Assembly: GCA_965248925.1 (NCBI GenBank)
Contig: CBDFLE010000006.1
Location: 3,488,001 to 3,552,000, forward strand
Reading direction: 5' to 3'
Length of the DNA: 64,000 bases
Source of the DNA: Candidatus Multivoradales bacterium
GTDB taxonomy: Bacteria > Acidobacteriota > Thermoanaerobaculia > Multivoradales > J023
A program made the position numbers and the translations under genes. Below are positions 7,401 to 22,963 of this stretch, piece by piece. A model generated the notes under the pieces. It did not search any database. It was not told where the DNA came from and saw only the letters and a program-made list of their open reading frames with translations. How positions within the stretch are numbered: the first letter of the stretch is position 1; every line of letters begins with the position of its first letter.

Positions 7401-8768
7401 AGCTTCGACAATTTCGGCAACATCCAGCAGCTATCAACACCCGGCTTCGCGGCTCTCAATCTCAACCCCAGCGCCACCACCAACCGCCTCGGCCTCTCGG
7501 GCGCTCAGTACGACGCGGCCGGCAATCTGACCGACATCACCCTCGGCAGCGAGAGCTTCGACTACGCCTTCGACGGCGCCAACATGATGAAGCACCTGCG
7601 CTCGAACACCGATCAAGCGCGGGTCTTCATCTACAACGCCAGCGACGAGCGGATCCTCACCTTCGACTGCTTCGGCCCCGGCGCCACCAGCACTTGCACC
7701 ACCCAGCCCGCCAGCCTCACCTGGACCCTACGCGGTCTCGGCAACGAAGTCCTGCGAGTCTACGATCAGCCAGCTGGCGGCGCCTTCAGCTGGAGTCGAG
7801 ACTACGTCCATCGCGGCGGGCAGCCCCTCGCCACCATCGAGCCCGAGGGTAGCGGTGGCGAGATGACGTCGCATCTCCATCTTGATCACCTGGGCACACC
7901 CCGGCAGATCACCCGAGGGGGTCAGCAGGTGGCGTTGCACAACTACTTTCCCTTTGGTCAAGAGGCGACCAGCGCGGAGGCTGACGAGATCCAGCTGAAA
8001 TTCACCGGTCATGAGCGGGACAAGACCGGGACCGGGGCGAGGAGCGAGCTGGACTACATGCATGCGCGGCATTGCAGTCCGGTGGTGGGGCGGTTCTTGA
8101 GTGTGGACCCGGCGAAGTCCGCCAAGCCCAGCGCGCCGGGAAGCTGGAACCGCTATTCCTATGCGGGGAACAACCCGATCAACGAGATCGACCCCAATGG
8201 GCGAGAAAGCCGTGCGGCGATGGCTCTCGAACAAGATATACAGCGCTTGATGCGGGGCGAGATCACCCAGGAGCAGTACATTGAGAACATCAATGCTCGG
8301 GGAATGGGAGCACTGTTTGCTGCCAGCCTTCTCTCGCCAGTCGACGAGACGACTCTTGTTGTCGCTGTTACTCGAAAAGCACTTCCTAGTGTTGGGTCAA
8401 AGCTGTCTGCTGTCTTTGCTCGACTTGGTAAGGTCTTTCAACGGGGATCGCGCGGAGGAGCAAAGGGGGCAGCGAGCGTTGACGACCTGCTTCGGGCTGG
8501 CCAGCAACTGGATAGAAATGGACTTAGCAGAGCTGGGCGCTCTCTACAGAAGCACGGAGACAGAGCAGACAGCGTTTTTCCACGGTCAACGGGCAATGCA
8601 GCTGCAAGGAACGATCAAGGACAACAGATCCTTGAAGAGATCTTGAACAGCTCGAACCAGACTACTCGGGCAAATCGCCTCGGTGGACGGGATATTTTCG
8701 ATACTGCCAGTGGGCGCGGAGTACGCTTCGACGGAGATGGGCAGTTCATAGGATTCCTAGATCCATGA
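4401..8768 (+). CDS. Rhs/YD-repeat polymorphic toxin, main body, ending in tip A
   Basis: Many YD repeats (YDRLGRL, YDGLGR, YDGAGN); Rhs core DHLGTPR...YFPFG...KFTGHERD...LDYMHAR...GRFLSVDP...WNRYSY..NNPIN.IDPNG, followed by a variable C-terminal domain. Confidence 0.93.
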   Translation: MEDRFGNWINVRYANDGDWTLTDSQGRTHTVDFVGGRVATVRLEAFGSQSNSTFLFQYRTETLERQFGFRPGCVPIAEHTLTTQVLDRVVLPDGSFYEMDYLTVDNLLSGGLSKLRLPTGGAYGYDYQLFPFQTQLADLFHAPDWGTVARGVKSKHLFLDDGDTTPYATWSYTYDTANPQAPGDPLGHPCFHSMKVTDPLGFETVGYFSTVGANNRWSYGLPYTYCDPISGSFSEAGPFLSQELFDAGGVKLRSIFVEFDSDGRDAGNYNEKAHRLRYRKETFHDDGGKVREVTFSDFDGLGHFRTMTTGGSFGAADVRTSSTTYNANPDDSSIDPATDLVLPSHNARWILETWDEQSVSEGGTTEKAEFCFSSTTGFLERRRQLAGSSRQSRDVVSLLTSTDGFVTGERVYGGDTQNLGTGSLCSLGLSGPTYRTDHVYASGSLRKSTAVDCTGTAILTLADYDIDSDTGLVATSRDAAGLGTSFTYDRLGRLTGQRPAELGWTQWTYTLPTTANPSLAPKLTEQQCQPFQTSCSGTDLMSFREHRYDGLGRRLQETVRIPIANAGQTELWHRYTTWNPRHWKTDESVWTTASAAGESRRTTYLAYDRFGRPGRVKPPEQPATFFTYQGDRVQTRRFKVQLTSGQQDTYVTEIMDGQGRLAEVCEGSSAAWSGSCGGGGLLTRYSYDDGGRLTKVCQNLSGSTCGQTRLFSYDGRGFLLSETHPEIGPSGNGRIDYRFDAGGNATSKDLIGSTAFDLSFDFDAAGRLIRVLESSNGAGSTPRLQKQFRYARTNSGSDHRAGKLVQTVRHNWVDIQSPLAPEPGSLDVKLSESFRYTGRQGLMSEKQTRYQFFAGNYAFTTGFAFDTQGNLSQLDYPSCQHADGGCATNDPQRTVNFNYEKGMLRSVPGFANNLTYQSGGMLHQLAHSDGVVDSQEVSSLNGLARPHQLTTSAGWSSGNFAYDGAGNISAIGNLAYRYDRLGRLISGQTSVGATLFTQTASFDNFGNIQQLSTPGFAALNLNPSATTNRLGLSGAQYDAAGNLTDITLGSESFDYAFDGANMMKHLRSNTDQARVFIYNASDERILTFDCFGPGATSTCTTQPASLTWTLRGLGNEVLRVYDQPAGGAFSWSRDYVHRGGQPLATIEPEGSGGEMTSHLHLDHLGTPRQITRGGQQVALHNYFPFGQEATSAEADEIQLKFTGHERDKTGTGARSELDYMHARHCSPVVGRFLSVDPAKSAKPSAPGSWNRYSYAGNNPINEIDPNGRESRAAMALEQDIQRLMRGEITQEQYIENINARGMGALFAASLLSPVDETTLVVAVTRKALPSVGSKLSAVFARLGKVFQRGSRGGAKGAASVDDLLRAGQQLDRNGLSRAGRSLQKHGDRADSVFPRSTGNAAARNDQGQQILEEILNSSNQTTRANRLGGRDIFDTASGRGVRFDGDGQFIGFLDP
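7899..7926 (+). other. Putative attL junction: host arm CCCCGGCAGAT, core CACCCG, element arm AGGGGGTCAGC
   Basis: Identity with the three downstream tip copies starts exactly at TCACCCGAGG (7909); codon style shifts from C-rich to G-rich here. Confidence 0.7.
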
Positions 8769-9019
8769 AGCGGGATGAGTTCTCAGCTGGCCATTTCAGC
8801 GTGATGATTGCCAGCGATCTGGATCACGAGAAGGTTTACGCAGAGATCTACTGTGATGACAAGTTTGTGGCGCTCGTGAGCCAGGAGCATGGCCTTGAGC
8901 ACAAAATGTTAGAGGTGCCAGGGCCTGGGCTTGTGGAAGAACAAATCTCTCGGGAGGTGGATCTCAAGGGTTTTCAGCACGCTCTTGAGCTAGCCGCGAG
9001 AAAGCTGCACGGCGAGTAG
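8765..9019 (+). CDS. Putative immunity protein for tip A
   Basis: 84 aa acidic ORF overlapping the toxin stop codon (ATGA); the position is typical of rhs immunity genes. Confidence 0.75.
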   Translation: MKRDEFSAGHFSVMIASDLDHEKVYAEIYCDDKFVALVSQEHGLEHKMLEVPGPGLVEEQISREVDLKGFQHALELAARKLHGE

Positions 9020-9057
9020 GCCGCGTTGGCCAACCTTTGACAGTAGCTCGCCATCAT

Positions 9058-9084
9058 GAGTGCCCGGTGTCCCACCGGGCACTC
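9058..9084. terminator. Perfect 12-bp hairpin between the convergent immunity and XRE genes
   Basis: GAGTGCCCGGTG-TCC-CACCGGGCACTC; no clear U-tract. Confidence 0.5.
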
Positions 9085-9462
9085 TCACTGGTGGAGCACT
9101 TCTTCGATCTGGTGCTTCTTGATGTAGGCGTCGATAAGGGAGGTGACGACGTGGCGATCATCGTCGCTCATCCGCTCGACCGCTTCGAACTGGCGTAGCA
9201 ACTCCCGATCCCGCAAGGCAGCCCCACGGGCTGCATCCCCATCGAGATCATCCCGCAGTAGAAAATCGATCGAGACGTCGAGAACATCGGCGAGCCTGAC
9301 GGCAGTTTCGGCGTTGGGCATGGCTTGGCCAATCTCATACTTGCCTACATGGCGACCGTGGATGCCGACCCGTTTGCCGAACTCGTCCTGGGACCATCCG
9401 CGCTCTTTGCGCAGCTTGCGGAGCTTCTGGCCGAAGCTGGGGGCGTCTGTAGTCATCTCCAT
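9085..9462 (-). CDS. XRE-family HTH repressor, type 1
   Basis: FGQKLRKLRKERGWSQDEFGKRVGIHGRHVGKYEIG..MPNAET..RLADVLDVSIDFL. Confidence 0.9.
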   Translation of the reverse strand: MEMTTDAPSFGQKLRKLRKERGWSQDEFGKRVGIHGRHVGKYEIGQAMPNAETAVRLADVLDVSIDFLLRDDLDGDAARGAALRDRELLRQFEAVERMSDDDRHVVTSLIDAYIKKHQIEEVLHQ

Positions 9463-9551
9463 CCGTTGCCTCTCGCTATGAATCTCCGCAAATTCTACAG
9501 CGCAAGCACCTCGCCATCAAGGGAAATGGAGTCTCGGGGCAGAGTTCTTAC

Positions 9552-9581
9552 TTGTAAAACCACGTCTATGCGCTATATAAT
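9552..9581 (+). promoter_or_regulatory. Putative sigma70 promoter of the SymE-primase-integrase operon, unit 1
   Basis: TTGTAA-18 bp-TATAAT in the divergent intergenic region. Confidence 0.55.
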
Positions 9582-9667
9582 CGAGTCAATCGATGCGTAT
9601 GGTGCTCGCTATGAAAACGAGCCCATCAGCTACAACAGAAAGACAGAATCTTGCCGGAGGATCTCCA

Positions 9668-9964
9668 ATGACCGAGCACAAGCTAACGATCTCCGCCCTG
9701 TACCGCCCCGGCTGGCACGTCTTGCCCAGATCGGCACAGCTGCCATTGCTGCAAGTGGTCGGCCCATGGCTCCAGGACGCTGGCTTCTACCCCGGTGCGC
9801 GAGTGCGGATCGATGTGGTGGGTGACGGGCGTTTGGTGGTGACGCGGGTGGAAGAGGGCGAGGAGGAGAGGGAAATGCAGCCGGTGGTGTGGGTGCCGGC
9901 GGATCAGATCGGCCGGATTGATGAGGTCTCGGCAAGTCGCCTGGCAGGAGCAGCCTGTGTCTGA
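9668..9964 (+). CDS. SymE-like (AbrB-fold) protein 1, unit 1
   Basis: PLLQVVGPWLQDAGFYPGARVRIDV motif; GGAGG RBS before the ATG at 9668. Confidence 0.7.
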   Translation: MTEHKLTISALYRPGWHVLPRSAQLPLLQVVGPWLQDAGFYPGARVRIDVVGDGRLVVTRVEEGEEEREMQPVVWVPADQIGRIDEVSASRLAGAACV

Positions 9965-10181
9965 GTCGAGAGCTGAGCGGCATCTGACGATCTCTACCCT
10001 GCACGAGCCCCGCGCACCGCACTACATCAACGGTCCGTGCTCGGTGCGGCTTGTGCCGTTTGTGCGGATGCGGGGGGCTTGGCTGGAAGCAGCGGGGTTT
10101 CGCTGTGGGGAGCGGCTGCGGGTGGAGGTCGAGCAGGATCGTTTGGTGCTTACTCCGGTGGGATCGGAGGCGGCACGGTGA
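9957..10181 (+). CDS. SymE-family protein 2, unit 1
   Basis: VPFVRMRGAWLEAAGFRCGERLRVEVEQDRLVLT matches the SymE pattern; GTG start after GGAG, overlapping both neighbours. Confidence 0.75.
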   Translation: MSESRAERHLTISTLHEPRAPHYINGPCSVRLVPFVRMRGAWLEAAGFRCGERLRVEVEQDRLVLTPVGSEAAR

Positions 10182-13100
10182 GCAGGATTCCGGAAGCGGA
10201 AGTGGAGCGACTAAAGCGAGAAGTATCGGTGGAACGCCTGGTCCTGGCCCGCGGTGTAGAGCTGAAACGGCACGGGGCGGACCTGCTGGGGCTGTGTCCG
10301 TTTCACGACGACCACGAGCCGTCGCTGGTGATCTCGCCAAAGAAGAACCTGTGGCACTGCCTGGGCGCCTGCCAGGCGGGTGGCTCGGTGATCGATTGGG
10401 TGATGCGAGATCGCGGGGTGTCGTTTCGCCACGCGGTCGAGCTGCTGCGCTCGGATCTGCCGGCGGCGGCGGTCACTGAGGCGCGGCCTTCGGCGCCGGC
10501 TCTGCCTTCGCCGGTGGTGGCGGACGTCGAGGACGCGGAGTTGCTCGGCCAGGTCGTCGGCTACTACCACGAGGCTTTGAAGGAGGGCCCGGAGGCGCTG
10601 GCTTATCTGGAGAGCAGAGGGCTGAAGCACCCGGAGATGATCGAGCATTTCAGGCTTGGCTTCGCCAACCGGACGCTGGGCTATCGACTGCCATCGAAGC
10701 AGCTGAAGGCGGGTAAGGAGATGCGGGGTCGATTGCAGAAGCTCGGCGTGCTGCGCAAGTCGGGTCATGAGCACTTCAACGGCTCGATCGTCTTTCCGGT
10801 TTTCGATTCAACAGGCCAGGTGGTGGAGATCTACGGGCGCAAGATCACACTAAATCTTCGCAAGGGGACGCCCTTGCATCTCTATCTGCCGGGTCCACAT
10901 CGAGGGATCTTTAATGCGGAAGCTCTGGTGGCCTCGACCGAGATCATCCTCTGCGAGTCGCTGATCGACGCTCTGACTTTCTGGTGTGCGGGTTACCGTA
11001 ACGTCACCAGCGCCTACGGCATCCAGGGTTTCACCGCGGAGATGCTGGCAGCCTTCGGTGGCCACGGAGTCGAGCGGGTGCTGATCGCCTACGACCGTGA
11101 CGATGCCGGCGAGAAGGCCGCCGGGAAGCTGGCCGAGAAGCTGGTGGGTGCCGGGATCGACTGCTACCGAATCCAATTTCCGCGTGGCATGGATGCCAAC
11201 GAGTACGCGCTGAAGGTGACCCCGGCGGCGAAGTCGCTGGGGGTGGTGATCCGCAAAGCACAGTGGCTCGGCAAAGGCAAGCCGCCGGGCGTGAAACCGG
11301 GGTTTGGGCCAACAGCTGGCCTAATCGCGCCAACGGTACGGCCAAACACAGCCGCAGAGGCGGTAATGGCTCCACCAACAGAGCAGCTGACATCATCGAA
11401 TACCGCCGGAGAGGCGGTATTGGCACTGCCCGCCCCGGCCGAAGCCTCCCCACTGCCCGCACCGCCTCCGCCAGATATGCCGGCTGAGGTGCGCGACCAG
11501 GAGGTGGTCTTGTCGCTCGGCGATCGCCGCTACCGCATTCGCGGTCTGCCGAAGAATCTGGCCTACGACGTGCTCAAGGTCAACGTCCTGGCGTCGCGGG
11601 GCGACGCCTTCCACGTCGACACTTTCGATCTCTACGCGGCGCGGCCGCGGGCGGTGTTTCAGCGGGCGGCAGCCGCTGAGCTGGGGGTCGAGGAGCAGGT
11701 GGTCAAGAAGGATCTGGGCAAGGTGCTGCTGAAGCTCGAGGAGCTGCAGGACGAGCAGATCCGCTCAGCACTCGAGCCGCAGTCGACGGCGGTGGAGCTG
11801 TCAGAGGGAGAGAAGGAAGCGGCGCTTGAGCTGCTGCGCTCACCAGATCTCTTGGTGCGCATCCTCGCGGACTTCGAGCGCTGCGGGGTGGTGGGCGAGG
11901 AGGTCAACAAGCTGATGGGCTACCTGGCGTCGACCTCGCGTTTCCTGGAACGGCCGCTGGCGGTGGTGGTGCAGTCCAGCTCAGCGGCCGGTAAGTCGGC
12001 GCTGATGGAGGCGGTGCTGTCGCTGATGCCAGGTGAGCAGCAAGTGAAGTACTCGGCGATGACCGGGCAATCGCTGTTCTACATGGGCGAAACGGATCTG
12101 CAGCACAAGATCCTGGCGATCGTCGAGGAGGAGGGGGCCGAGCGGGCTAGCTACGCCTTGAAGCTGCTTCAGTCGGAGGGCGAGCTGACGATTGCCTCGA
12201 CCGGCAAGGATGCTTCAACGGGCAAGCTGGTGACGCACGAGTACCACGTCGAAGGGCCGGTGATGATCTTCTTGACGACCACGGCAATCGACATCGATGA
12301 AGAGCTTTTGAATCGCTGCTTGGTGCTCTCGGTGGACGAGGCGCGAGAGCAGACGCGGGCGATTCACCGGCTGCAGCGGCAGCGGCGGACGCTGGAGGGG
12401 CTACTCTCGCGCACCCGGCGCGACGGGGTGATGGCGCTGCACCAGAACGCGCAGCGGCTGCTGCGGCCGCTGGCGGTGGTCAATCCCTTTGCTCCGGAAC
12501 TTACCTTTCTCGATACGCAAATCCGCACCCGCCGGGACCACGAGAAGTACCTGACGCTGATCGACGTGATTGCTCTTTTGCATCAATACCAGCGAGAGGT
12601 GAAGCTGGCGGTGGTCGACGGGCGAGAGGTGGAGTACGTCGAAGTGGTGGCCACAGACATCGAGACAGCCAACCGCCTGGCGCACGAAGTCTTGGGGCGC
12701 TCGCTCGATGAGCTGCCGCCGCAGACGCGGCGCCTGCTGGGGCTGATCGACGAGATGGTCAGCGAAGCCTGTGAGGCGCTGGCGATGGATCGGCCGGACT
12801 ACCGTTTCAGCCGGCGGGCGGTGCGCGAGCACACCGGCTGGGGCAATACGCAGCTGAAGCTGCACCTACGCCGTCTTGAGGAGTTTGAGTATCTGCTGGT
12901 GCATCAGGGCGGGCGGGGGCAGAGCTTTGTCTACGAGCTGGTTTACGTGGCCAGCGACGAGCCGGAGCGGCCGCGACTGCCGGGGCTGATCGAGGTCGAA
13001 ACACTCAGGTACGACGAAAAGAAGTCGGGGTCTGAAGCTGAGAAGTCGGGGCCAAGTCGGCCCCAAGTCGGGGGGGTGTCGGGGGGTGGTCGGGGTGCAG

Positions 13101-13243
13101 TTTCCCAAGCAGAATCAACAACTTCGGCCGGAAATCGTGGAGTTTCGGCAAAAAACGCATATAAGGGGGTGCGAGAAAACGGCCCGTCATGTCGTAAATC
13201 TGGGCCTCGTACCGGCGGCTCGGCGGCGGTCGAGGGGGCCTGA
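10178..13243 (+). CDS. CHC2 zinc finger plus Toprim primase fused to a P-loop NTPase/helicase-like domain, unit 1
   Basis: CPFHDD...WHCLGAC zinc finger; CESLIDALT...YDRDDAG Toprim; Pro-rich linker; SSAAGKS Walker A and IVEEEG Walker B-like motif; GTGA overlap with the upstream stop and GGAGG RBS. Confidence 0.88.
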   Translation: MSRIPEAEVERLKREVSVERLVLARGVELKRHGADLLGLCPFHDDHEPSLVISPKKNLWHCLGACQAGGSVIDWVMRDRGVSFRHAVELLRSDLPAAAVTEARPSAPALPSPVVADVEDAELLGQVVGYYHEALKEGPEALAYLESRGLKHPEMIEHFRLGFANRTLGYRLPSKQLKAGKEMRGRLQKLGVLRKSGHEHFNGSIVFPVFDSTGQVVEIYGRKITLNLRKGTPLHLYLPGPHRGIFNAEALVASTEIILCESLIDALTFWCAGYRNVTSAYGIQGFTAEMLAAFGGHGVERVLIAYDRDDAGEKAAGKLAEKLVGAGIDCYRIQFPRGMDANEYALKVTPAAKSLGVVIRKAQWLGKGKPPGVKPGFGPTAGLIAPTVRPNTAAEAVMAPPTEQLTSSNTAGEAVLALPAPAEASPLPAPPPPDMPAEVRDQEVVLSLGDRRYRIRGLPKNLAYDVLKVNVLASRGDAFHVDTFDLYAARPRAVFQRAAAAELGVEEQVVKKDLGKVLLKLEELQDEQIRSALEPQSTAVELSEGEKEAALELLRSPDLLVRILADFERCGVVGEEVNKLMGYLASTSRFLERPLAVVVQSSSAAGKSALMEAVLSLMPGEQQVKYSAMTGQSLFYMGETDLQHKILAIVEEEGAERASYALKLLQSEGELTIASTGKDASTGKLVTHEYHVEGPVMIFLTTTAIDIDEELLNRCLVLSVDEAREQTRAIHRLQRQRRTLEGLLSRTRRDGVMALHQNAQRLLRPLAVVNPFAPELTFLDTQIRTRRDHEKYLTLIDVIALLHQYQREVKLAVVDGREVEYVEVVATDIETANRLAHEVLGRSLDELPPQTRRLLGLIDEMVSEACEALAMDRPDYRFSRRAVREHTGWGNTQLKLHLRRLEEFEYLLVHQGGRGQSFVYELVYVASDEPERPRLPGLIEVETLRYDEKKSGSEAEKSGPSRPQVGGVSGGGRGAVSQAESTTSAGNRGVSAKNAYKGVRENGPSCRKSGPRTGGSAAVEGA
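13022..13095 (+). repeat. Iteron-like GTCGG array inside the 3' end of the primase gene (also near 20890-20963 and 28605-28678)
   Basis: GTCGG at 13024, 13045, 13056, 13067, 13078 and 13089 (11-bp period); first four are AAGTCGG. Confidence 0.6.
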
Positions 13244-14316
13244 TGCCGCGCCGTGGCGAGCGCAAGATCCGCCTCTTGCCGGGCAATCCAACCGACCCTC
13301 GGGGCTTCGCGGTGATGGCGGGTCAGTACCTGGAGTGGATGGCGATCAAGAACTACTCTCCACGAACCGTTGAGAACCGGCATCTATACCTCTCGTTTCT
13401 CATCGCATGGTGTGAAGAGCGTGGGGTGTCGCGGCCGTCGGAAGTGACCAAGCCGATCCTGGAGCGCTACGCCAGGTGGCTCTACCACTACCGCAAGCCT
13501 GGGGACGGGCGGCCGCTGTCTTTCCGGGCTCAGCACTCGCGGCTGGTGCCGGTAAGGGCCTTCTTCAAATGGGCGGCTCGGGCCAACCACCTGCTCTACA
13601 ACCCGGCCTCGGAGCTGGAGCTACCGAAGCTGGAGCACCGGCTGCCGGCGGCGGTGCTGACCGCCTCTGAAGCCGACCAGGTGCTCAACCAGCCCGACAC
13701 CACGGAGCCGCTCGGGATGCGCGACCGAACAATCCTTGAAGTCTTCTACTCCACGGGCATGCGCCGGGCTGAGCTGATCGGCCTCGGCCGTTACGATCTC
13801 GACATCGAGCGCGGGACGGTGATGGTGCGCCAGGGCAAGGGTAGGAAAGATTGGATGATCCCGATCGGCGAGCGGGCGTTGGCCTGGATCGATCGCTACG
13901 TCACTGCGGTACGGCCGTCGCTGGTGGTCGAGCCGGACGGCGGGCCGCTCTTTCTCACCAACCAGGGGACGCCGTTTGCGCCGTCGCGAATGACTCAGCT
14001 GGTGCGCGGCTACGTGCTCGCCGCCGATCTCGGCAAGTCGGGCGCTTGCCATCTCTTCCGCCACACGATGGCGACGCTGATGCTCGAAGGTGGTGCGGAT
14101 ATCCGCTTCATTCAGCAGATGCTCGGCCATGCCAAGCTGGAGACGACGCAGATTTACACTCAGGTATCGATCCGCAAACTGAAGTCGATCCACTCGGCAA
14201 CCCATCCGGGCGCGAAGCTAGGGCGGCGGGTGGCACCGCCGACAGAAGAAGACGGCAGCGATGAAGTGACCGCCGAGGACTTACTCGATGTAGTCGAGAC
14301 CGAGGCGGAGGACTGA
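13243..14316 (+). CDS. Tyrosine recombinase (XerC/XerD-like integrase), unit 1
   Basis: Catalytic set intact: TGMRRAE (R), KGRK (K), HLFRH (H-x-x-R), LGH (H), TQIY (Y); TGATG coupling to the primase gene. Confidence 0.93.
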   Translation: MPRRGERKIRLLPGNPTDPRGFAVMAGQYLEWMAIKNYSPRTVENRHLYLSFLIAWCEERGVSRPSEVTKPILERYARWLYHYRKPGDGRPLSFRAQHSRLVPVRAFFKWAARANHLLYNPASELELPKLEHRLPAAVLTASEADQVLNQPDTTEPLGMRDRTILEVFYSTGMRRAELIGLGRYDLDIERGTVMVRQGKGRKDWMIPIGERALAWIDRYVTAVRPSLVVEPDGGPLFLTNQGTPFAPSRMTQLVRGYVLAADLGKSGACHLFRHTMATLMLEGGADIRFIQQMLGHAKLETTQIYTQVSIRKLKSIHSATHPGAKLGRRVAPPTEEDGSDEVTAEDLLDVVETEAED

Positions 14317-14520
14317 CCCCCGCCCGAAGCGGTCCGGGTCTGCGGGTCCCGCGCTGCGGCCGGCTGCGCCGTCCTCCGTTCGCGGGCCACGCAGCCCTCG
14401 GCAGTATTTTTTCGTCACCCCAGCCCGCCCCGGCCCGAGCATCTGCGATCCACCACCTGAGCCCTCCGATCACCGGCCCGGCGCGGGGCTTCAAGTAGTC
14501 CAAGAGAAGACTCTTCGAAA

Positions 14521-14761
14521 GCTCACCCCAAGCTCCGCCGGGGCGTGTGTCCCTCCGGTCGCTGCGCTCCCTCCGGGCACGGGCCAGCCGCTCCGCAAGC
14601 CGCGCGCCACCTGGGTCCCTCCTCGGACCTCCCAGGTGTCACGCGGCTTGCATGGGTCGCTGTCCGATAGTGCGCGCCCTATCCGACCTGGCCCTCACAC
14701 GCCCCGGCTCCGGGCCTACGGCCTTTCCATAACGCGTGCATTATGGAAACTTGGGGTGAGC
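14521..14761. other. Nested inverted-repeat (branched hairpin) module downstream of the integrase
   Basis: Nested pairs GCTCACCCCAAG/CTTGGGGTGAGC, CCGGGGCGTGTG/CACACGCCCCGG, CAAGCCGCG/CGCGGCTTG, CACCTGGG/CCCAGGTG, TTTCCATAA/TTATGGAAA. Confidence 0.65.
14722..14751 (+). other. cer/dif-like XerCD site, unit 1
   Basis: CCTTTCCATAA-CGCGTGCA-TTATGGAAACT; the right arm matches the ColE1 cer XerD arm TTATGGTAAAT at 9/11; 8-bp spacer as in cer. Confidence 0.55.
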
Positions 14762-15206
14762 ACTCCGCGAGCCTGCGATGGTCAGCGGCTTCGGAACCAC
14801 GCCCCGCTCCGGGCCTCCTTGCCGAGATCCACCAGCCAGCACTGCGACGGCTCGGCCCGGCCCCGTCCGCCCCCTCAAGGGGGCTCCCCATCCTCCTCCC
14901 AAGACCCGCCCTGCGTCGTGGCCTCCGTACCCTGCGCGCGGCGCCCTGCGGTCGCCGTGCTCGGCTCCGGCCCCGCCGCCACCACGCCCCCAACGTGCAG
15001 ATTGGTTTGGCGGCTGCGCCGCCGGCACCAAACTGCCGGAAAGACCCGCGCTCGCTCCGACGACCAGCCCGACGAAAACGACCTAAGAAAACACCCACTG
15101 CCCGAAGAAAGCGGCCTAAGAAAACCGCATCCCGCCTCCGCACCAACCACCCTTCCTCCTTTAGCCGCTGTCTTCGAGCGCCACCCGCGGCGTAGAATGG
15201 CCCGGC

Positions 15207-16283
15207 ATGAGGCAGGCAGCTAAAGGAAGAAGCACTTGGACGATGGCGCTCGGGCTGGTCGTCGCGCTCCTGGCGGTGACGATGCCGGCAACAGCGATCG
15301 CGCCGATCTCCGAGTCGAGCTACGCCGAAACTCGCCTCTGGACCTTCGAGCACCAAGACCCCGCCGGCAGTAGGGCCGAGCGAGGCTTAAGTAGAACAGG
15401 CATAGAGGGTTACCAGCTCTCAAGCTGGAAACCGCGTCGGGCTGTCCCCTTCACCCGAGGGGGTCAGCAGGTGGCGTTGCACAACTACTTTCCCTTTGGT
15501 CAAGAGGCGACCAGCGCGGAGGCTGACGAGATCCAGCTGAAATTCACCGGCCATGAGCGGGACAAGACCGGGACCGGCAGCCGCTCCGAGCTGGACTATA
15601 TGCATGCTCGGCATTGCAGCCCGGTGGTGGGGCGGTTTTTGAGTGTGGATCCATCTCTGGGTAGCCGGTCCTCACCACAGAGTTGGAATCGCTTCTCTTA
15701 CGTCAGCAACAGTCCAATCAACCAGGTAGACCCGGACGGAAGGCTTGGGTTTCTGGTAACTGCATTTCTTGGCGGAGTCGTAGATGTTGGGATTCAAATT
15801 GCGAGCAACGCGCTTTCAGGGGAAGAGCTCACAACAGGCGTAGCCGGGGCTTTCGTCACCGGAGCAGTGGCTGGTGCCACAGGTCTTGGGCTATTGAAGG
15901 TGGCTGGTAGGGGAGCGAAGCTCGTAGGAGCCGTAAGAAATGCAAAGAAACTGAAGAAGTCAGCTGCTGCTGCTGACGCAGCTAGAGCGGGCGCAAAGGG
16001 GGCAGCGGAGGTTTCGCAGAAGGTTGCAAACCAGGCTAACCACATCTTCGGTTCAAAGAACCTCGCAAAACATAGGCTCGGCGGGGTTCTCGACGCCTTC
16101 GGCGGAGACCAGGTCGCGGCGTTACGATCCATAGAGTCAAGTGCACAGAAGCTCGCAGCCAGCGGGGCTATCGAGGGTGTTTTCCGAACAGTGGTGAGGG
16201 TTGGAGAACAATCGGTCATGGTGAGGGGCCGTGTGATTGATGGTGTCGTGAACATCTCCACTGCCTTCATCCCGATCCCATAG
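15207..16283 (+). CDS. Leader::Rhs tip B fusion (signal-peptide-like N-terminus, Rhs core end, pre-toxin linker, putative RNase toxin)
   Basis: About 81 aa leader (MRQAAKGRSTWTMALGLVVALLAVTMPATA...) in frame with TRGGQQVALHNYFPFG...DPDG; C-terminal NHIF...AKH...VRGRVIDG..ISTAF. Confidence 0.8.
   Translation: MRQAAKGRSTWTMALGLVVALLAVTMPATAIAPISESSYAETRLWTFEHQDPAGSRAERGLSRTGIEGYQLSSWKPRRAVPFTRGGQQVALHNYFPFGQEATSAEADEIQLKFTGHERDKTGTGSRSELDYMHARHCSPVVGRFLSVDPSLGSRSSPQSWNRFSYVSNSPINQVDPDGRLGFLVTAFLGGVVDVGIQIASNALSGEELTTGVAGAFVTGAVAGATGLGLLKVAGRGAKLVGAVRNAKKLKKSAAAADAARAGAKGAAEVSQKVANQANHIFGSKNLAKHRLGGVLDAFGGDQVAALRSIESSAQKLAASGAIEGVFRTVVRVGEQSVMVRGRVIDGVVNISTAFIPIP
15441..15468 (+). other. att-like junction between units 1 and 2 (11-6-11)
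   Basis: GCTGTCCCCTT-CACCCG-AGGGGGTCAGC; arms are inverted at 9/11 positions. Confidence 0.75.
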
Positions 16284-16287
16284 GAGT

Positions 16288-16647
16288 ATGCGGATGAGCA
16301 CGGAGAGCCTGGAATCTGCTGTCATCAGCAGAATGTTGGATGACCCTGAACTTTCACCTTGCCTTCGTTCGCTCGACCCCTTGTCACTGGTGATGTCGGA
16401 GCGGAACTTCAGCCAAGTAGGGTTCATCACCAGCTTCGCTCGGACTTCTGGAACAAAGCTGTTCGGTGACGACATCTCCATGCGGTGGGGAAAGGTTATT
16501 GTGCGCATCAATTCCGAGATTGATGTGGACTTCGTCGTCTATGTGGATGACGGATACCTGACCGGAATTGAAGGCTGCACCTTCGGCGGCGAGTTGTGGC
16601 CCTCCGAAATAGAAGCGTTCGAGTTGACTGATCTGCCGGATGGTTGA
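16288..16647 (+). CDS. Putative immunity protein for tip B
   Basis: Acidic 119 aa ORF directly after the toxin stop, AGGAG RBS; start may be the ATG at 16294. Confidence 0.75.
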   Translation: MRMSTESLESAVISRMLDDPELSPCLRSLDPLSLVMSERNFSQVGFITSFARTSGTKLFGDDISMRWGKVIVRINSEIDVDFVVYVDDGYLTGIEGCTFGGELWPSEIEAFELTDLPDG

Positions 16648-16951
16648 TCGTCGTGCCGGCGGAGTGCCAGCGGTCACGCCGCTTCGAATCCAGGAGCACG
16701 ACGGTCACCTTCAAACGTTGGGCCTGTCTTCGATCGGGAAGTTGGAACTCGCGGTAGCGGTGTCGCCGGGAGTCTCGGCCGAGACAGCGCGGCAACTTCT
16801 GCACTCAGCAGCTTCCTACATGGTTTCGGTCAACTACCGGCCCGAGGCGGGGGAAATCCTGTGCTATGAGGGCCAGTGCTACCGGCTGGAGCCGGTGCGG
16901 GGTGGCCTCCTGCTGCTGCGTCCGGTGATTGGCAGTGAGGCCGCCAGCTAA
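16640..16951 (+). CDS. Hypothetical protein, possibly an accessory or orphan immunity-like gene (start uncertain)
   Basis: ORF kept in units 2 and 3 despite local divergence (TPLRIQEH..HLQT.GLSSI...ELAVAVSPGVSA). Confidence 0.4.
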   Translation: MVDRRAGGVPAVTPLRIQEHDGHLQTLGLSSIGKLELAVAVSPGVSAETARQLLHSAASYMVSVNYRPEAGEILCYEGQCYRLEPVRGGLLLLRPVIGSEAAS

Positions 16952-16958
16952 GCCGCGA

Positions 16959-17330
16959 TCAGGGGGCAGCGGTGGCTGATTCCTGGGTGACGAGGTCAAC
17001 GAACTTCTTCTTGGTCAGCAGGCCATCGATGATCTTGATGACGGCAGCCTTTTCCTCGGGGTCGAGGCGTTCGAGCAGCTCCATGCGCTGGGCGAGAGGC
17101 TGATCTTCGAGCCGGACGGGTCGAAACTCTCCCTCTTCTTCATTCAGCAGAAAGTCGGTCGTCACCTCGAACTCTGAGGCGAGCTTGCGCAGCAGGTCAA
17201 TGGACGGCTGGTAGCGGCCGTTCTCAAGCCGGCTGATGTGGCCAGTGCTAACCCCGAGGCGCTTGCCGAGTTCGCCCTGGGCCCACCTGTGCTCAGCGCG
17301 GAGCTTTCGGATCTTCTCTTGAAGGGTCAT
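16959..17330 (-). CDS. XRE-family HTH repressor, type 2
   Basis: MTLQEKIRKLRAEHRWAQGELGKRLGVSTGHISRLENGRYQPS; start placed at the ATG at 17330. Confidence 0.9.
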   Translation of the reverse strand: MTLQEKIRKLRAEHRWAQGELGKRLGVSTGHISRLENGRYQPSIDLLRKLASEFEVTTDFLLNEEEGEFRPVRLEDQPLAQRMELLERLDPEEKAAVIKIIDGLLTKKKFVDLVTQESATAAP

Positions 17331-17428
17331 TGATCGTCGATTTCCTGGCCTCTTGGGCCGAATTTCCACTAATTCTAAGCGCATACGGTGATTTGCGCAA
17401 GTAATTCGGGCGAGAACGTACGCTCTGC

Positions 17429-17457
17429 TTGACGATGATAGGCGCATGCGTTATTAT
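17429..17457 (+). promoter_or_regulatory. sigma70 promoter of the SymE-primase-integrase operon, unit 2 (same sequence at 25186-25214)
   Basis: TTGACG-17 bp-TATTAT; the spacer holds the palindrome CGCATGCG, a candidate XRE operator. Confidence 0.65.
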
Positions 17458-17538
17458 TTGTGCATGAGAGCAGCAAGGTGCCGTGGTCGCAACCGTTAAC
17501 TGCTCCAAGCGTGATGCGAAAACTGGAGGGAAATCTCA

Positions 17539-17835
17539 ATGACCGAGCACAAGCTAACAATCTCCGCCCTGTACCGCCCCGGCTGGCACGTCTTGCCCAG
17601 ATCGGCACGGCTGCCATTGCTGCAGATTGCAGGTCCGTGGCTCCAGGACGCTGGCTTCTACCCTGGTGCGCGAGTGCGGGTCGACGTGGTGGGCGAAGGG
17701 CGCCTGGTGGTGACGCGGGTGGAAGAAGGCGAGGAAGAGAGGGAAATGCAGCCGGTGGTGTGGGTGCCAGCGGATCAGATCGGCCGGATTGATGAGGTCT
17801 CGGCAAGTCGCCTGGCAGGAGCAGCCTGTGTCTGA
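17539..17835 (+). CDS. SymE-like protein 1, unit 2
   Basis: Near-identical to 9668..9964. Confidence 0.7.
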   Translation: MTEHKLTISALYRPGWHVLPRSARLPLLQIAGPWLQDAGFYPGARVRVDVVGEGRLVVTRVEEGEEEREMQPVVWVPADQIGRIDEVSASRLAGAACV

Positions 17836-18052
17836 GTCGAGAGCTGAGCGGCATCTGACGATCTCTACCCTGCACGAGCCCCGCGCACCGCACTACATCA
17901 ACGGTCCGTGCTCGGTGCGGCTTGTGCCGTTTGTGCGGATGCGGGGGGCTTGGCTGGAAGCAGCGGGGTTTCGCTGTGGGGAGCGGCTGCGGGTGGAGGT
18001 CGAGCAGGATCGTTTGGTGCTTACTCCGGTGGGATCGGAGGCGGCACGGTGA
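17828..18052 (+). CDS. SymE-family protein 2, unit 2
   Basis: Identical protein to 9957..10181. Confidence 0.75.
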   Translation: MSESRAERHLTISTLHEPRAPHYINGPCSVRLVPFVRMRGAWLEAAGFRCGERLRVEVEQDRLVLTPVGSEAAR

Positions 18053-21000
18053 GCAGGATTCCGGAAGCGGAAGTGGAGCGACTAAAGCGAGAAGTATCGG
18101 TGGAACGCCTGGTCCTGGCCCGCGGTGTAGAGCTGAAACGGCACGGGGCGGACCTGCTGGGGCTGTGTCCGTTTCACGACGACCACGAGCCGTCGCTGGT
18201 GATCTCGCCAAAGAAGAACCTGTGGCACTGCCTGGGCGCCTGCCAGGCGGGTGGCTCGGTGATCGATTGGGTGATGCGAGATCGCGGGGTGTCGTTTCGC
18301 CACGCGGTCGAGCTGCTGCGCTCGGATCTGCCGGCGGCGGCGGTCACTGAGGCGCGGCCTTCGGCGCCGGCTCTGCCTTCGCCGGTGGTGGCGGACGTCG
18401 AGGACGCGGAGCTACTCGGCCAGGTCGTCGGCTACTACCACGAGGCTTTGAAGGACAGCCCGGAAGCGCTGACGTACCTGGAGAGTCGGGGCTTGAAGCA
18501 CCCGGAGATGATCGAGCATTTCCGGCTTGGCTTCGCCAACCGGACGCTGGGCTATCGTCTGCCATCGAAGCAGCTGAAGGCGGGTAAGGAGATGCGGGGT
18601 CGATTGCAGAAGCTCGGCGTGCTGCGCAAGTCGGGTCATGAGCACTTCAACGGCTCGATCGTCTTTCCGGTCTTCAAGGGTGGCCGGGTGGTGGAGATCT
18701 ACGGGCGCAAGATCACACTGAATCTTCGCAAGGGGACGCCCTTGCATCTCTATCTGCCGGGTCCACATCGAGGGATCTTTAATGCGGAAGCTCTGGTGGC
18801 CTCGACCGAGATCATCCTCTGCGAGTCGCTGATCGACGCTCTGACTTTCTGGTGTGCGGGTTACCGTAACGTCACCAGCGCCTACGGCATCCAGGGTTTC
18901 ACCGCGGAGATGCTGGCAGCCTTCGGTGGCCACGGAGTCGAGCGGGTGCTGATCGCCTACGACCGTGACGATGCCGGCGAGAAGGCCGCCGGGAAGCTGG
19001 CCGAGAAGCTGGTGGGTGCCGGGATCGACTGCTACCGAATCCAATTTCCGCGTGGCATGGATGCCAACGAGTACGCGCTGAAGGTGACCCCGGCGGCGAA
19101 GTCGCTGGGGGTGGTGATCCGCAAAGCACAGTGGCTCGGCAAAGGCAAGCCGCCGGGCGTGAAACCGGGGTTTGGGCCAACAGCTGGCCTAATCGCGCCA
19201 ACGGTACGGCCAAACACAGCCGCAGAGGCGGTAATGGCTCCACCAACAGAGCAGCTGACATCATCGAATACCGCCGGAGAGGCGGTATTGGCACTGCCCG
19301 CCCCGGCCGAAGCCTCCCCACTGCCCGCACCGCCTCCGCCAGATATGCCGGCTGAGGTGCGCGACCAGGAGGTGGTCTTGTCGCTCGGCGATCGCCGCTA
19401 CCGCATTCGCGGTCTGCCGAAGAATCTGGCCTACGACGTGCTCAAGGTCAACGTCCTGGCGTCGCGGGGCGACGCCTTCCACGTCGACACTTTCGATCTC
19501 TACGCGGCGCGGCCGCGGGCGGTGTTTCAGCGGGCGGCAGCCGCTGAGCTGGGGGTCGAGGAGCAGGTGGTCAAGAAGGATCTGGGCAAGGTGCTGCTGA
19601 AGCTCGAGGAGCTGCAGGACGAGCAGATCCGCTCGGCACTCGAGCCGCAGTCGACGGCGGTGGAGCTGTCAGAGGGAGAGAAGGAAGCGGCGCTTGAGCT
19701 GCTGCGCTCACCAGATCTCTTGGTGCGCATCCTCGCGGACTTCGAGCGCTGCGGGGTGGTGGGCGAGGAGGTCAACAAGCTGATGGGCTACCTGGCGTCG
19801 ACCTCGCGTTTCCTGGAACGGCCGCTGGCGGTGGTGGTGCAGTCCAGCTCAGCGGCCGGTAAGTCGGCGCTGATGGAGGCAGTGCTGGCACTGATGCCAG
19901 GTGAGCAGCAAGTGAAGTACTCGGCGATGACCGGGCAATCGCTGTTCTACATGGGCGAAACGGATCTGCAGCACAAGATCCTGGCGATCGTCGAGGAGGA
20001 GGGGGCCGAGCGGGCTAGCTACGCCTTGAAGCTGCTTCAGTCGGAGGGCGAGCTGACGATTGCCTCGACCGGCAAGGATGCTTCAACGGGCAAGCTGGTG
20101 ACGCACGAGTACCACGTCGAAGGGCCGGTGATGATCTTCTTGACGACCACGGCAATCGACATCGATGAAGAGCTTTTGAATCGCTGCTTGGTGCTCTCGG
20201 TGGACGAGGCGCGAGAGCAGACGCGGGCGATTCACCGGCTGCAGCGGCAGCGGCGGACGCTGGAGGGGCTACTCTCGCGCACCCGGCGCGACGGGGTGAT
20301 GGCGCTGCACCAGAACGCGCAGCGGCTGCTGCGGCCGCTGGCGGTGGTCAATCCCTTTGCTCCGGAACTTACCTTTCTCGATACGCAAATCCGCACCCGC
20401 CGGGACCACGAGAAGTACCTGACGCTGATCGACGTGATTGCTCTTTTGCATCAATACCAGCGAGAGGTGAAGCTGGCGGTGGTCGACGGGCGAGAGGTGG
20501 AGTACGTCGAAGTGGTGGCCACAGACATCGAGACAGCCAACCGCCTGGCGCACGAAGTCTTGGGGCGCTCGCTCGATGAGCTGCCGCCGCAGACGCGGCG
20601 CCTGCTGGGGCTGATCGACGAGATGGTCAGCGAAGCCTGTGAGGCGCTGGCGATGGATCGGCCGGACTACCGTTTCAGCCGGCGGGCGGTGCGCGAGCAC
20701 ACCGGCTGGGGCAATACGCAGCTGAAGCTGCACCTACGCCGTCTTGAGGAGTTTGAGTATCTGCTGGTGCATCAGGGCGGGCGGGGGCAGAGCTTTGTCT
20801 ACGAGCTGGTTTACGTGGCCAGCGACGAGCCGGAGCGGCCGCGACTGCCGGGGCTGATCGAGGTCGAAACACTCAGGTACGACGAAAAGAAGTCGGGGTC
20901 TGAAGCTGAGAAGTCGGGGCCAAGTCGGCCCCAAGTCGGGGGGGTGTCGGGGGGTGGTCGGGGTGCAGTTTCCCAAGCAGAATCAACAACTTCGGCCGGA

Positions 21001-21111
21001 AATCGTGGAGTTTCGGCAAAAAACGCATATAAGGGGGAGCGAGAAAACGGCCCGTCATGTCGTAAACCTGGGCGTCGTACCGGCGGCTCGGCGGCGGTCG
21101 AGGGGGCCTGA
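18049..21111 (+). CDS. CHC2/Toprim primase-NTPase, unit 2
   Basis: Same motifs as the unit 1 copy, with a few substitutions. Confidence 0.88.
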   Translation: MSRIPEAEVERLKREVSVERLVLARGVELKRHGADLLGLCPFHDDHEPSLVISPKKNLWHCLGACQAGGSVIDWVMRDRGVSFRHAVELLRSDLPAAAVTEARPSAPALPSPVVADVEDAELLGQVVGYYHEALKDSPEALTYLESRGLKHPEMIEHFRLGFANRTLGYRLPSKQLKAGKEMRGRLQKLGVLRKSGHEHFNGSIVFPVFKGGRVVEIYGRKITLNLRKGTPLHLYLPGPHRGIFNAEALVASTEIILCESLIDALTFWCAGYRNVTSAYGIQGFTAEMLAAFGGHGVERVLIAYDRDDAGEKAAGKLAEKLVGAGIDCYRIQFPRGMDANEYALKVTPAAKSLGVVIRKAQWLGKGKPPGVKPGFGPTAGLIAPTVRPNTAAEAVMAPPTEQLTSSNTAGEAVLALPAPAEASPLPAPPPPDMPAEVRDQEVVLSLGDRRYRIRGLPKNLAYDVLKVNVLASRGDAFHVDTFDLYAARPRAVFQRAAAAELGVEEQVVKKDLGKVLLKLEELQDEQIRSALEPQSTAVELSEGEKEAALELLRSPDLLVRILADFERCGVVGEEVNKLMGYLASTSRFLERPLAVVVQSSSAAGKSALMEAVLALMPGEQQVKYSAMTGQSLFYMGETDLQHKILAIVEEEGAERASYALKLLQSEGELTIASTGKDASTGKLVTHEYHVEGPVMIFLTTTAIDIDEELLNRCLVLSVDEAREQTRAIHRLQRQRRTLEGLLSRTRRDGVMALHQNAQRLLRPLAVVNPFAPELTFLDTQIRTRRDHEKYLTLIDVIALLHQYQREVKLAVVDGREVEYVEVVATDIETANRLAHEVLGRSLDELPPQTRRLLGLIDEMVSEACEALAMDRPDYRFSRRAVREHTGWGNTQLKLHLRRLEEFEYLLVHQGGRGQSFVYELVYVASDEPERPRLPGLIEVETLRYDEKKSGSEAEKSGPSRPQVGGVSGGGRGAVSQAESTTSAGNRGVSAKNAYKGERENGPSCRKPGRRTGGSAAVEGA

Positions 21112-22184
21112 TGCCGCGCCGTGGCGAGCGCAAGATCCGCCTCTTGCCGGGCAATCCAACCGACCCTCGGGGTTTCGCGGTGATGGCCGGCCAGTACCTG
21201 GAGTGGATGGCGATCAAGAACTACTCTCCACGAACCGTTGAGAACCGGCATCTATACCTCTCGTTTCTCATCGCATGGTGTGACGAGCGTGGAGTGTCGC
21301 GGCCGTCGGACGTGACCAAGCCGATTTTGGAACGCTACGCCAGGTGGCTCTACCACTACCGCAAGCCCGAGGATGGGCGGCCGCTGTCTTTCCGGGCTCA
21401 GCACTCGCGGCTGGTGCCGGTAAGGGCCTTCTTCAAATGGGCGGCTCGGGCCAACCACCTGCTCTACAACCCGGCCTCGGAGCTGGAGCTACCGAAGCTG
21501 GAGCACCGGCTGCCGGCGGCGGTGCTGACCGCCTCTGAAGCCGACCAGGTGCTCAACCAGCCCGACACCGCCGACCCGCTCGGGATGCGCGACCGAACAA
21601 TCCTTGAAGTCTTCTACTCCACGGGCATGCGCCGGGCTGAGCTGATCGGCCTCGGCCGTTACGATCTCGACATCGAACGCGGGACGGTGATGGTGCGCCA
21701 GGGCAAGGGTAGGAAAGATTGGATGATCCCGATCGGCGAGCGGGCGCTGGCCTGGATCGATCGCTACGTCACTGAGGTACGGCCGTCGCTGGTGGTCGAG
21801 CCGGACGGCGGGCCGCTCTTTCTCACCAACCAGGGGACGCCGTTTGCGCCGTCGCGAATGACTCAGCTGGTGCGCGGCTACGTGCTCGCCGCCGATCTCG
21901 GCAAGTCGGGCGCTTGCCATCTCTTCCGCCACACGATGGCGACGCTGATGCTCGAAGGTGGTGCGGATATCCGCTTCATCCAGCAGATGCTCGGCCACGC
22001 CAAGCTGGAGACGACGCAGATTTACACTCAGGTATCGATCCGCAAACTGAAGTCGATCCACTCGGCAACCCATCCGGGCGCGAAGCTAGGGCGGCGGGTG
22101 GCACCGCCGACAGAAGAAGACGGCAGCGATGAAGTGACCGCCGAGGACTTACTCGATGTAGTCGAGACCGAGGCGGAGGACTGA
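21111..22184 (+). CDS. Tyrosine recombinase, unit 2
   Basis: R-K-H-R-H-Y residues intact. Confidence 0.93.
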   Translation: MPRRGERKIRLLPGNPTDPRGFAVMAGQYLEWMAIKNYSPRTVENRHLYLSFLIAWCDERGVSRPSDVTKPILERYARWLYHYRKPEDGRPLSFRAQHSRLVPVRAFFKWAARANHLLYNPASELELPKLEHRLPAAVLTASEADQVLNQPDTADPLGMRDRTILEVFYSTGMRRAELIGLGRYDLDIERGTVMVRQGKGRKDWMIPIGERALAWIDRYVTEVRPSLVVEPDGGPLFLTNQGTPFAPSRMTQLVRGYVLAADLGKSGACHLFRHTMATLMLEGGADIRFIQQMLGHAKLETTQIYTQVSIRKLKSIHSATHPGAKLGRRVAPPTEEDGSDEVTAEDLLDVVETEAED

Positions 22185-22478
22185 CCCCCGCCCGAGCATC
22201 TGCGATCCACCACCTGAGCCCTCCGATCACCGGCCCGGAGCGAGGCTTCAGGTAGTCCAAGAAAAGAGTCTCCGAAAGCTCGCCCCACGCTCCGCCGGGG
22301 CGTGTGTCCCTCCGGTCGCTGCGCTCCCTCCGGGCACGGGCCAGCCGCTCCGCAAGCCGCGCGCCACCTGGGCCCCTCCTCGGACCTCCCAGATGTCACG
22401 CGGCTTGCATGGGTCGCTGTCCGATAGTGCGCGCCCTATCCGACCTGGCCCTCACACGCCCCGGCTCCGGGCCTACGG

Positions 22479-22508
22479 CCTTTCCATAACGCGTGCATTA
22501 TGGAAACT
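22479..22508 (+). other. cer/dif-like XerCD site, unit 2
   Basis: Identical to 14722..14751. Confidence 0.55.
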
Positions 22509-22963
22509 TGGGGTGAGCACTCCGCGAGCCTGCGATGGTCAGCGGCTTCGGAACCACGCCCCGCTCCGGGCCTCCTTGCCGAGATCCACCAGCCAGCACT
22601 GCGACGGCTCGGCCCGGCCCCGTCCGCCCCCTCAAGGGGGCTCCCCATCCTCCTCCCAAGACCCGCCCTGCGTCGTGGCCTCCGTACCCTGCGCGCGGCG
22701 CCCTGCGGTCGCCGTGCTCGGCTCCGGCCCCGCCGCCACCACGCCCCCAACGTGCAGATTGGTTTGGCGGCTGCGCCGCCGGCACCAAACTGCCGGAAAG
22801 ACCCGCGCTCGCTCCGACGACCAGCCCAACGAAAACGACCTAAGAAAACACCCACTGCCCGAAGAAAGCGGCCTAAGAAAACCGCATCCCGCCTCCGCAC
22901 CAACCACCCTTCCTCCTTTAGCCGCTGTCTTCGAGCGCCACCCGCGGCGTAGAATGGCCCGGC

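Follow-up and report, generated by a model that had tools for sequence, protein, structure and literature searches.

A site-specific element in Rhs genes of a Multivoradales bacterium whose right end may give displaced toxin tips a signal-peptide-like head

We analysed 64,000 nucleotides of DNA from Candidatus Multivoradales bacterium (assembly GCA_965248925.1, contig CBDFLE010000006.1, positions 3,488,001 to 3,552,000), referred to below as the window and numbered from its first letter, in which the 3' part of an Rhs gene is occupied by three tandem copies of an integrative element. Our subject is the 259 bases (15193-15451) that form the right end of this 7.5-7.8 kb element. The reading towards which we lean, on a balance that is only slightly positive, is that each insertion exchanges C-termini reciprocally between the Rhs protein and a small signal-peptide toxin gene: Rhs gains the toxin of the element, and a signal-peptide head gains the displaced toxin, which would stay expressed and probably exported. 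The element would insert in the 3' part of Rhs genes at a CCCCT-7 nt-AGGGG site, the new tip, toxin and immunity gene of its left end becoming fused to the chromosomal Rhs gene. Its right end would be the 5' part of a small gene: a -10 element and an ATG, then a signal peptide of Sec type and some 50 residues of linker, which partly coincide with cis-acting DNA motifs and continue in frame across the core site. The attachment site would then lie within a small signal-peptide toxin gene, the head of which would stand on the element's own toxin in the excised circle and on the displaced toxin after insertion. This head would bring transcription, a start codon and probably Sec export, the displaced immunity gene would be co-transcribed, and the old toxin and its antidote gene would probably stay in use. 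We infer transcription, translation, export and cleavage of the leader fusion, and any benefit from it, from the sequence comparisons that follow.

Each of the three units ends with an open reading frame (ORF) that continues without a stop into the next Rhs tip (15207-16283 and 22964-24040, 358 residues each; 30577-31638, 353 residues) and of which the first 81 codons, here called the leader, are element-specific. An earlier interpretation made without database searches (the sequence-only reading) had reported ORFs of about 81 codons starting at these three positions and stop-free into the next tip, and both their coordinates and their frame were confirmed. It had also described a basic n-region, a hydrophobic core and two A-x-A motifs, which we locate at K6 and R8, at the uncharged residues 13-27, and at residues 28-30 (ATA) and 30-32 (AIA), respectively. 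Basic residues likewise precede the hydrophobic run in all 10 leaders of relatives that were scored. Residues 1-30/32 of the leader thus described look like a Sec signal peptide and residues 33-81 like a linker. A crude signal-peptide rule, which includes a 10-residue window of mean Kyte-Doolittle hydropathy >= 2.0 and was devised after the sequences had been seen, was passed by 10/10 leaders versus 186 of 6812 short ORFs (2.7%) and 192 of 1149 long ORFs of this genome. By codon position, the GC content of the leader is 0.58/0.60/0.72, and that of the 890 nt upstream is flat (0.72/0.71/0.68); since the third-position peak falls in the proposed frame and no periodicity is seen upstream, this was counted in favour of a real leader frame. 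The first ATG of the leader is kept in the related locus L049 and in a diverged copy on contig C4 of the genome, and Met13 is not; the gene callers behind the protein databases annotated all leader ORFs, with the start at Met13. A homologue search with leader residues 1-84 returned 9 proteins, all from this genome, the ORF of L049 (195 residues) being one residue too short for the length range covered. Pfam gave no match with a useful E-value on the leader, the toxins or the immunity candidates, save for one displaced toxin on contig C4, with Ntox10 and EndoU matches just under their cut-offs.

The hexamer TAGAAT is separated from the leader ATG by 8 nt (15199-15206), exactly the spacing given by the sequence-only reading. 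A -10-like hexamer stands 6-9 nt before the start in the window, in L049, L045-47, L048 and L101 and in five actinobacterial loci, its sequence among the relatives being TAGAAT, TACAAT, TAACAT or TAAAAT, and NANACT in the actinobacterial loci. In L054, L055 and L060, the hexamer is found 32-36 nt ahead of the start, together with an AGGAAA ribosome site. For comparison, TANNNT occurs 5-10 nt upstream of 1.8% of random positions and of 6.5% of long-ORF starts in this genome. With a -10-like hexamer only 6-9 nt from the start codon and no ribosome-binding site, the arrangement suggests a leaderless or nearly leaderless mRNA. A scan for promoters and terminators returned one terminator-like site, on the minus strand.

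These observations bear on the simplest alternative, that of a chance open frame in GC-rich DNA in which the hydrophobic stretch and the TAGAAT are coincidental. The setting is one in which such frames arise: GC content is 62.5% for the genome and 70.6% for the flank, several overlapping ORFs of 100-225 residues are found on both strands within 14636-15356, and 12 identical open copies of the leader count once. Set against these points are the background frequencies of signal-peptide-like starts (2.7%) and of the hexamer (1.8%), as well as the comparative results described below, and we regard an origin by chance as highly improbable. The comparisons indicate that the leader ORF is not due to chance.

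The position of the leader relative to the element boundary was defined by comparison of copies. Identity to the main Rhs gene starts at 15451 (equivalent to 7909), at the edge of a CCCCT/AGGGG inverted repeat which has a form typical of tyrosine-recombinase cores and falls on the codons for T-R-G, where the Rhs-associated core domain begins. Twelve leader copies are identical through 15460 and the tips diverge from there; in agreement with this, one unitig of all four DNA runs (which derive from one sample) terminates at 15460, where the copies begin to differ. At a single insertion at C6:1.34 Mb, the two junctions differ within the spacer, and in the related genome G016 the junctions read CCCCT-6 nt-AGGGG. 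The unit 7909-15450 is 100% identical to C5:974206-966665, where a leader instead of the Rhs core lies upstream and a different toxin downstream. Because an identical unit occurs in two loci with both flanks different, this comparison identifies the stretch from tip to leader as a mobile element whose attachment site is in the Rhs tip. An alternative unit, running from the XRE gene to the immunity gene with the site after the latter, was ruled out since T1, its immunity gene and the XRE variant travel with the downstream backbone in two contexts. No excised-circle or empty-site joint was present in the contigs of the four DNA runs. A single joint that goes back from 16700 to 9666 (one contig, depth 7) is expected from the tandem array itself. 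In the same contigs, backbone depth is several times cargo depth.

In the 7.98 Mb of the genome (6 contigs), the right end of the element occurs 14 times, and close copies of the integrase likewise number 14. Twelve of the 14 leaders are identical; all open into tips as ORFs of 351-367 residues, and they do so with nine toxin types. As the 12 leader copies are 100% identical, we treat them as one observation, and the within-genome test of the leader is weak. The order of toxins is T1|T2|T2'|T3 in the window and T1|T1|T6|T7|T7|T8|T8|T9 on C5, where a third copy of element 1 holds a 2.9-kb insertion sequence. This insertion sequence (C5:977242-980138; a 524-residue transposase-like ORF, >=22 copies in the genome) interrupts the primase of an otherwise identical element 1. 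With 14 copies, several of them 100% identical, the activity of the element is by this measure very recent. The remaining two copies, at C4:259861 and C6:3629356, have diverged (81-83% identity) and lie midway along Rhs genes and not at the tip, displacing 1117 and about 750 Rhs residues; one of them has the same C-terminus as the gene that it entered. Elsewhere in the genome (C6:2444213-2456885), a classic array of seven Rhs tips lacks both leader and element, and a piece of the Rhs core survives ahead of each tip. Orphan arrays in this genome are therefore built in two ways.

To extend the comparison beyond this genome, the integrase was looked for in 61 related genomes and found at E <= 1e-60 in 11 of them, this one included. 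Twenty regions with 22 integrase copies were taken, and two copies with <750 nt downstream were left out, so that 20 were scored (L056 and L057, whose frames open further upstream, by eye). A signal-peptide-like leader ORF follows 14 of the 20 copies, in 7/9 genomes; the copies without one are L050, L058, L059, L061, L062 and L063. The signal-peptide parts fall into at least five mutually non-alignable classes (reference/L049; L045-47; L054/55/60; L048/52/56/57; L051; actinobacterial loci), and in each, basic residues precede an uncharged hydrophobic run that is followed by small residues. The frame is open across three junction motifs, TRGG, VPRG and GVAAK. In G016, four tandem elements lie in a 2020-residue Rhs gene, with attL 114 codons before the Rhs stop; there the junction falls after the Rhs core, at V-P-R-G, and the leader leads in frame directly into the toxin domain.

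A wider, species-level scan (one genome per species) yielded >=545 confirmed relatives of the integrase. Among the matches listed, 79 loci were kept, titled Myxococcota, Acidobacteriota, Actinomycetota, Proteobacteria, Verrucomicrobiota, Chloroflexia and others, and in 70 of these a primase adjoins the integrase. When the 79 loci were screened for signal-peptide ORFs, only hits coupled to a conserved DNA motif were used, because spurious hits are expected in GC-rich DNA. This motif, GAAACTCGC, is kept over 9-12 nt in elements of Acidobacteriota, Myxococcota and Actinomycetota (L045-L060, L067-L140). Its 9-mer (15327-15335 in the leader) was found downstream of the integrase in 14 loci of the survey, directly after a signal-peptide-like stretch in 8 of them (7 by a stricter automatic screen). 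In the actinobacterial loci, G-V-A-A-K closes the leader, and several leader-toxin-immunity genes are lined up with no Rhs. One such arrangement is L089 (Actinomycetota, metagenome-assembled genome), where signal-peptide-leader toxin genes follow each other downstream of the integrase at 7672-11083, each with a small gene and with no backbone between them. On the other side, the same locus encodes a protein with a signal peptide and a Hint-like region, and the junction motif of this protein is similar to that of the leader.

Several observations weigh against the reading that we favour, and most of them are what would be expected if the stretch were conserved because its DNA serves the attachment site (as core, as accessory sites and perhaps as an outward promoter) and the ORF were the decaying relic of a small toxin gene, with no effective translation. 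The dN/dS of the leader ranges from 0.29 to 0.85, is about 0.8, and so near 1, within the clade of the window, and reaches 1.28 versus a pseudogene copy, from which the leader appears weakly constrained. In the two diverged copies, the leader is broken and the primase and integrase are intact: one leader has a stop at codon 69, and the other a 1-nt deletion after codon 11, followed by a 784-residue frame through the junction. Of 16 other loci in which the integrase is followed within 3 kb by an Rhs tip, 3 have a signal-peptide-like start in frame with that tip and 13 lack one; in some of the 16 there is a short head without signal peptide. The 9-mer lies outside any signal-peptide ORF in 6 of its 14 loci. 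Wobble positions and rare codons are conserved (GAA ACT; TTA AGT; ATA), both in the 12-mer at 15327-15338 and in two AT-rich islands shared with G016, and this speaks for conservation that acts partly at the level of DNA. Two further points concern the signals themselves: a proline follows AIA, which presumably disfavours signal peptidase I at that place and makes ATA (28-30) the likelier site, and a sigma-70 consensus scan of 14300-16700 gave 0 promoter-like sites and no -35 match.

The DNA around the leader offers candidates for such site functions, and the leader region probably also carries cis-acting sites of the attachment site. Two inverted repeats, of 9 bp (15157/15219) and 15 bp (15058/15250), flank the start, which again agrees with conservation as DNA; L049 and the diverged copies retain the 9-bp repeat and both AT-rich 11-mers, and the repeats and 11-mers may be operator or accessory sites. 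The 12-mer at 15327-15338 was considered as a repeated arm-type site and rejected, occurring once per element: at <=2 mismatches no second copy was found in the element, bar one weak match at 8670. Rfam on 14250-15700 returned a chance-level miRNA match only (E 0.38). Four findings argue against a mere relic. Signal-peptide character outlasts DNA alignability between the leader classes, which is not expected of a relic; the start codon is kept 6-9 nt past a -10-like hexamer across phyla; the frame is kept at three kinds of junction; and third-position GC is enriched in the proposed frame. We therefore judge a conserved DNA site with an untranslated relic unlikely as the whole explanation. The sequence-only reading had proposed conservation of the leader frame in homologous elements as a check, and the outcome is divided: the open frame at three kinds of junction speaks for it, and the dN/dS values, the two broken diverged copies and the low count among tip-linked loci speak against it.

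A second alternative accepts the leader as a functional head and places its selection elsewhere, on the excised or newly arrived circle, in which it would head the element's own toxin-immunity operon; fusion to displaced tips would then be an unselected by-product, and the benefit would be early immunity or a stand-alone secreted toxin. By the geometry of the element, the same head would stand on the element's own tip in the circle, as the sequence-only reading had supposed. In the public contigs L065 and L124 (7.7-7.9 kb), the two ends overlap by 129 and 127 nt, respectively, which corresponds to units of 7594 and 7738 bp; each contig represents a whole element, assembled as a circle or as a collapsed tandem, between which the overlap alone cannot distinguish. 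In L124, which also carries a VapBC-like gene pair, a single ORF of 266 residues runs across the joint, from the element end through the Rhs core to the toxin; this fits the supposed circle fusion, and its head has no signal peptide, a further point against the reading that we favour. The actinobacterial rows of signal-peptide toxin genes with immunity genes and without Rhs suggest that the small toxin is a gene form in itself. In the last junction of G016, the leader ORF is retained though only 6 codons follow the core, which also fits a role in the circle. On the other side, the terminal overlaps cannot separate a circle from a tandem array, the DNA-run contigs of this genome hold no circle or empty-site joint, and a promoter alone would be enough for expression of immunity, which leaves the kept frame and the signal peptide unexplained. 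We consider selection on the circle rather unlikely to be the sole reason for the leader, and return to the reciprocal swap of C-termini, in which the displaced tip would itself be a product.

What the head would be joined to in the window is an Rhs tip of recognisable build. The 358-residue ORF at 15207 matches TIGR03696 (Rhs-associated core) over residues 94-178 with 58.1 bits (cut-off 32.5) and the 353-residue ORF with 57.3 bits, and the displaced tips carry two DPxG motifs. Paired DPxG motifs at the end of the Rhs core have a role in self-cleavage. The sequence-only reading had predicted mini-Rhs proteins of about 355 residues that keep the DPxG motif; this holds for the window, with 353-358 residues and both motifs, and does not generalise, as the leader of G016 sits directly on the toxin. 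Downstream, a TAGGAG ribosome site (16281-16286) overlaps the stop codon of the displaced toxin ahead of its probable immunity gene, and an immunity paralogue at 24051 begins at the Met equivalent to the likely start. The immunity gene at 16288-16647 had no Pfam match. The features of the locus are collected in Table 1.

Table 1. Features of the Rhs locus and of the tandem elements (window coordinates; C5 is another contig of the genome)
Feature	Position	Strand	Remarks
Upstream ORF with signal-peptide-like N-terminus	3606..4388	+	separate from main Rhs gene
Main Rhs gene, 1455 aa	4401..8768	+	tip from 7909 on is part of element copy 1
Element copy 1, 7542 bp	7909..15450	+	100% identity to C5:974206-966665, both flanks different there
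Copy 1, left end: tip and toxin T1, fused to main Rhs	from 7909	+
Copy 1, immunity candidate	8765-9019
Copy 1, XRE regulator	9085-9462	-
Copy 1, SymE/AbrB-like ORF	9593-9964		weak match to PF08845, E 1.3e-5, under cut-off
Copy 1, primase-helicase (helicase part putative)	10037-13243
Copy 1, integrase	13243-14316
Copy 1, 890 nt of non-coding DNA, then leader	downstream of integrase
15-bp inverted repeat	15058-15072 / 15250-15264		brackets hexamer and start codon
AT-rich 11-mer, two occurrences	15082-15092 / 15115-15125		just upstream
9-bp inverted repeat	15157-15165 / 15219-15227		brackets hexamer and start codon
-10-like hexamer TAGAAT	15193..15198	+	repeats at 22950-22955, 30563-30568
Leader, 81 element-specific codons	15207..15449	+	copies at 22964-23206, 30577-30819
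Conserved DNA motif GAAACTCGC + 3 nt, reads E-T-R-L	15327..15338	+	wobble and rare codons kept across phyla
Probable recombinase core, CCCCT / AGGGG inverted repeat	15446..15462	+	7-nt spacer (15451-15457)
Element copy 2, 7757 bp	15451..23207	+	right end is leader 22964-23206
Displaced Rhs tip and toxin type T2, in frame with leader	15451..16283	+
Probable immunity gene of displaced toxin	16288..16647	+	likely start ATG 16294
Element copy 3, 7613 bp	23208..30820	+	right end is leader 30577-30819
Last displaced tip and toxin T3 (to 31638) with immunity candidate (31638-32000)	30821..32000	+	presumably the original end of the Rhs gene

All three tandem units share one backbone: an XRE gene on the minus strand, a primase protein, a recombinase, about 890 nt without coding periodicity, and the leader ORF. 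The primase protein (1053-1068 residues) carries N-terminal primase domains (DnaG-type zinc finger and Toprim), and its long C-terminal part is read as a putative helicase, a reading made without any family match. The integrase is a tyrosine recombinase of 357-358 residues (PF00589 at E 3.7e-36) that belongs to the XerC-like subfamily NF002331 (427.7 bits, cut-off 371). An integron-type integrase was considered and rejected, the scores being 100.9 bits for TIGR02249 (cut-off 265) and 70.7 for NF011946 (cut-off 435). Just past the integrase stop, each of the four DNA runs has one contig that lacks a 111-nt stretch (14321-14433), which fits a length difference between element copies. The SymE/AbrB-like ORF may be a regulator or directionality factor; a similar ORF is also present in G016. 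At the other end of the locus the Rhs gene is split (4386-4400): the upstream ORF stops at a TGA and the ORF of 1455 residues begins 12 nt further on, and the 200 nt around this split have 91-99% identity to seven other Rhs loci of the genome.

Until now, the acquisition of tips and the persistence of old tips in arrays have been explained mainly by homologous recombination with silent cassettes. The locus described here offers a site-specific, element-driven route with exact junctions, and what looks like a built-in means to keep the displaced toxin-immunity pair expressed. A full-text literature search, which did not extend to supplementary files, found no published description of such an element. 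The breadth of the integrase family (at least 545 matches) means that the phenomenon may be widespread. We put forward tentatively, as a possibility less secure than the exchange of C-termini in the window, that self-replicating elements in several phyla use an Xer-like recombinase to swap toxin C-termini in such a way that the old toxin is still secreted and the cell is immune to both. If this is true, the new toxin would be fired through Rhs, the old one would be secreted in the form of a small protein, and a head of leaderless design could function across a host range from Acidobacteriota to Actinomycetota.

The closest known counterpart is the orphan cassette of Rhs and CdiA-CT systems, in which, according to Zhang et al. 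2012, the 3' end gives way to an incoming tip with its toxin and immunity gene, and the old ones accumulate downstream as an array (PMC3482391). The likeness is that an incoming tip-toxin-immunity unit displaces the 3' end and that the old pairs form a downstream array. The differences are that here a whole element with primase-helicase and recombinase comes with each displacement, at an exact site, and that the displaced tip gains a start codon, a signal peptide and a promoter-like site, whereas the classic orphan is a headless fragment, usable via homologous recombination. A second counterpart is provided by phages and islands that insert in the 3' ends of genes and bring a replacement 3' end, as in tRNA genes or, for e14 and phage 21, in icd. 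There, too, the attachment site lies inside a gene and a substitute 3' end keeps the target whole; here, however, the substitute is a new toxin, and the other end of the element makes the displaced 3' end a new gene. Integrons likewise have a tyrosine recombinase from the Xer/integron branch and arrays of cassettes that lack promoters and are read from a resident one, but no attC-like cassette structure is seen here, the recombination site lies inside a coding frame, and each cassette travels with its own recombinase and primase. In shufflons and invertible tail-fibre segments (Rci, Gin, Cin), inversion takes place among resident segments. They resemble the present case in that site-specific recombination in a coding frame swaps C-termini on a constant N-terminal body, and differ in that they lack a mobile replicon, a toxin-immunity pair and any second head for the segment not in use. 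Finally, the rAID systems of Bacteroidales are described as arrays of orphan immunity genes, with conserved motifs in the intergenic regions, next to a predicted tyrosine recombinase (PMC12247911), and Zhang et al. likewise place XerC/D genes beside polyimmunity loci (PMC3482391). A tyrosine recombinase beside an array is thus common to both; in rAID one recombinase goes with many short immunity genes and a toxin head is lacking, whereas here whole toxins are carried, replication and recombination genes are present in every unit, and the array lies inside an active Rhs gene.

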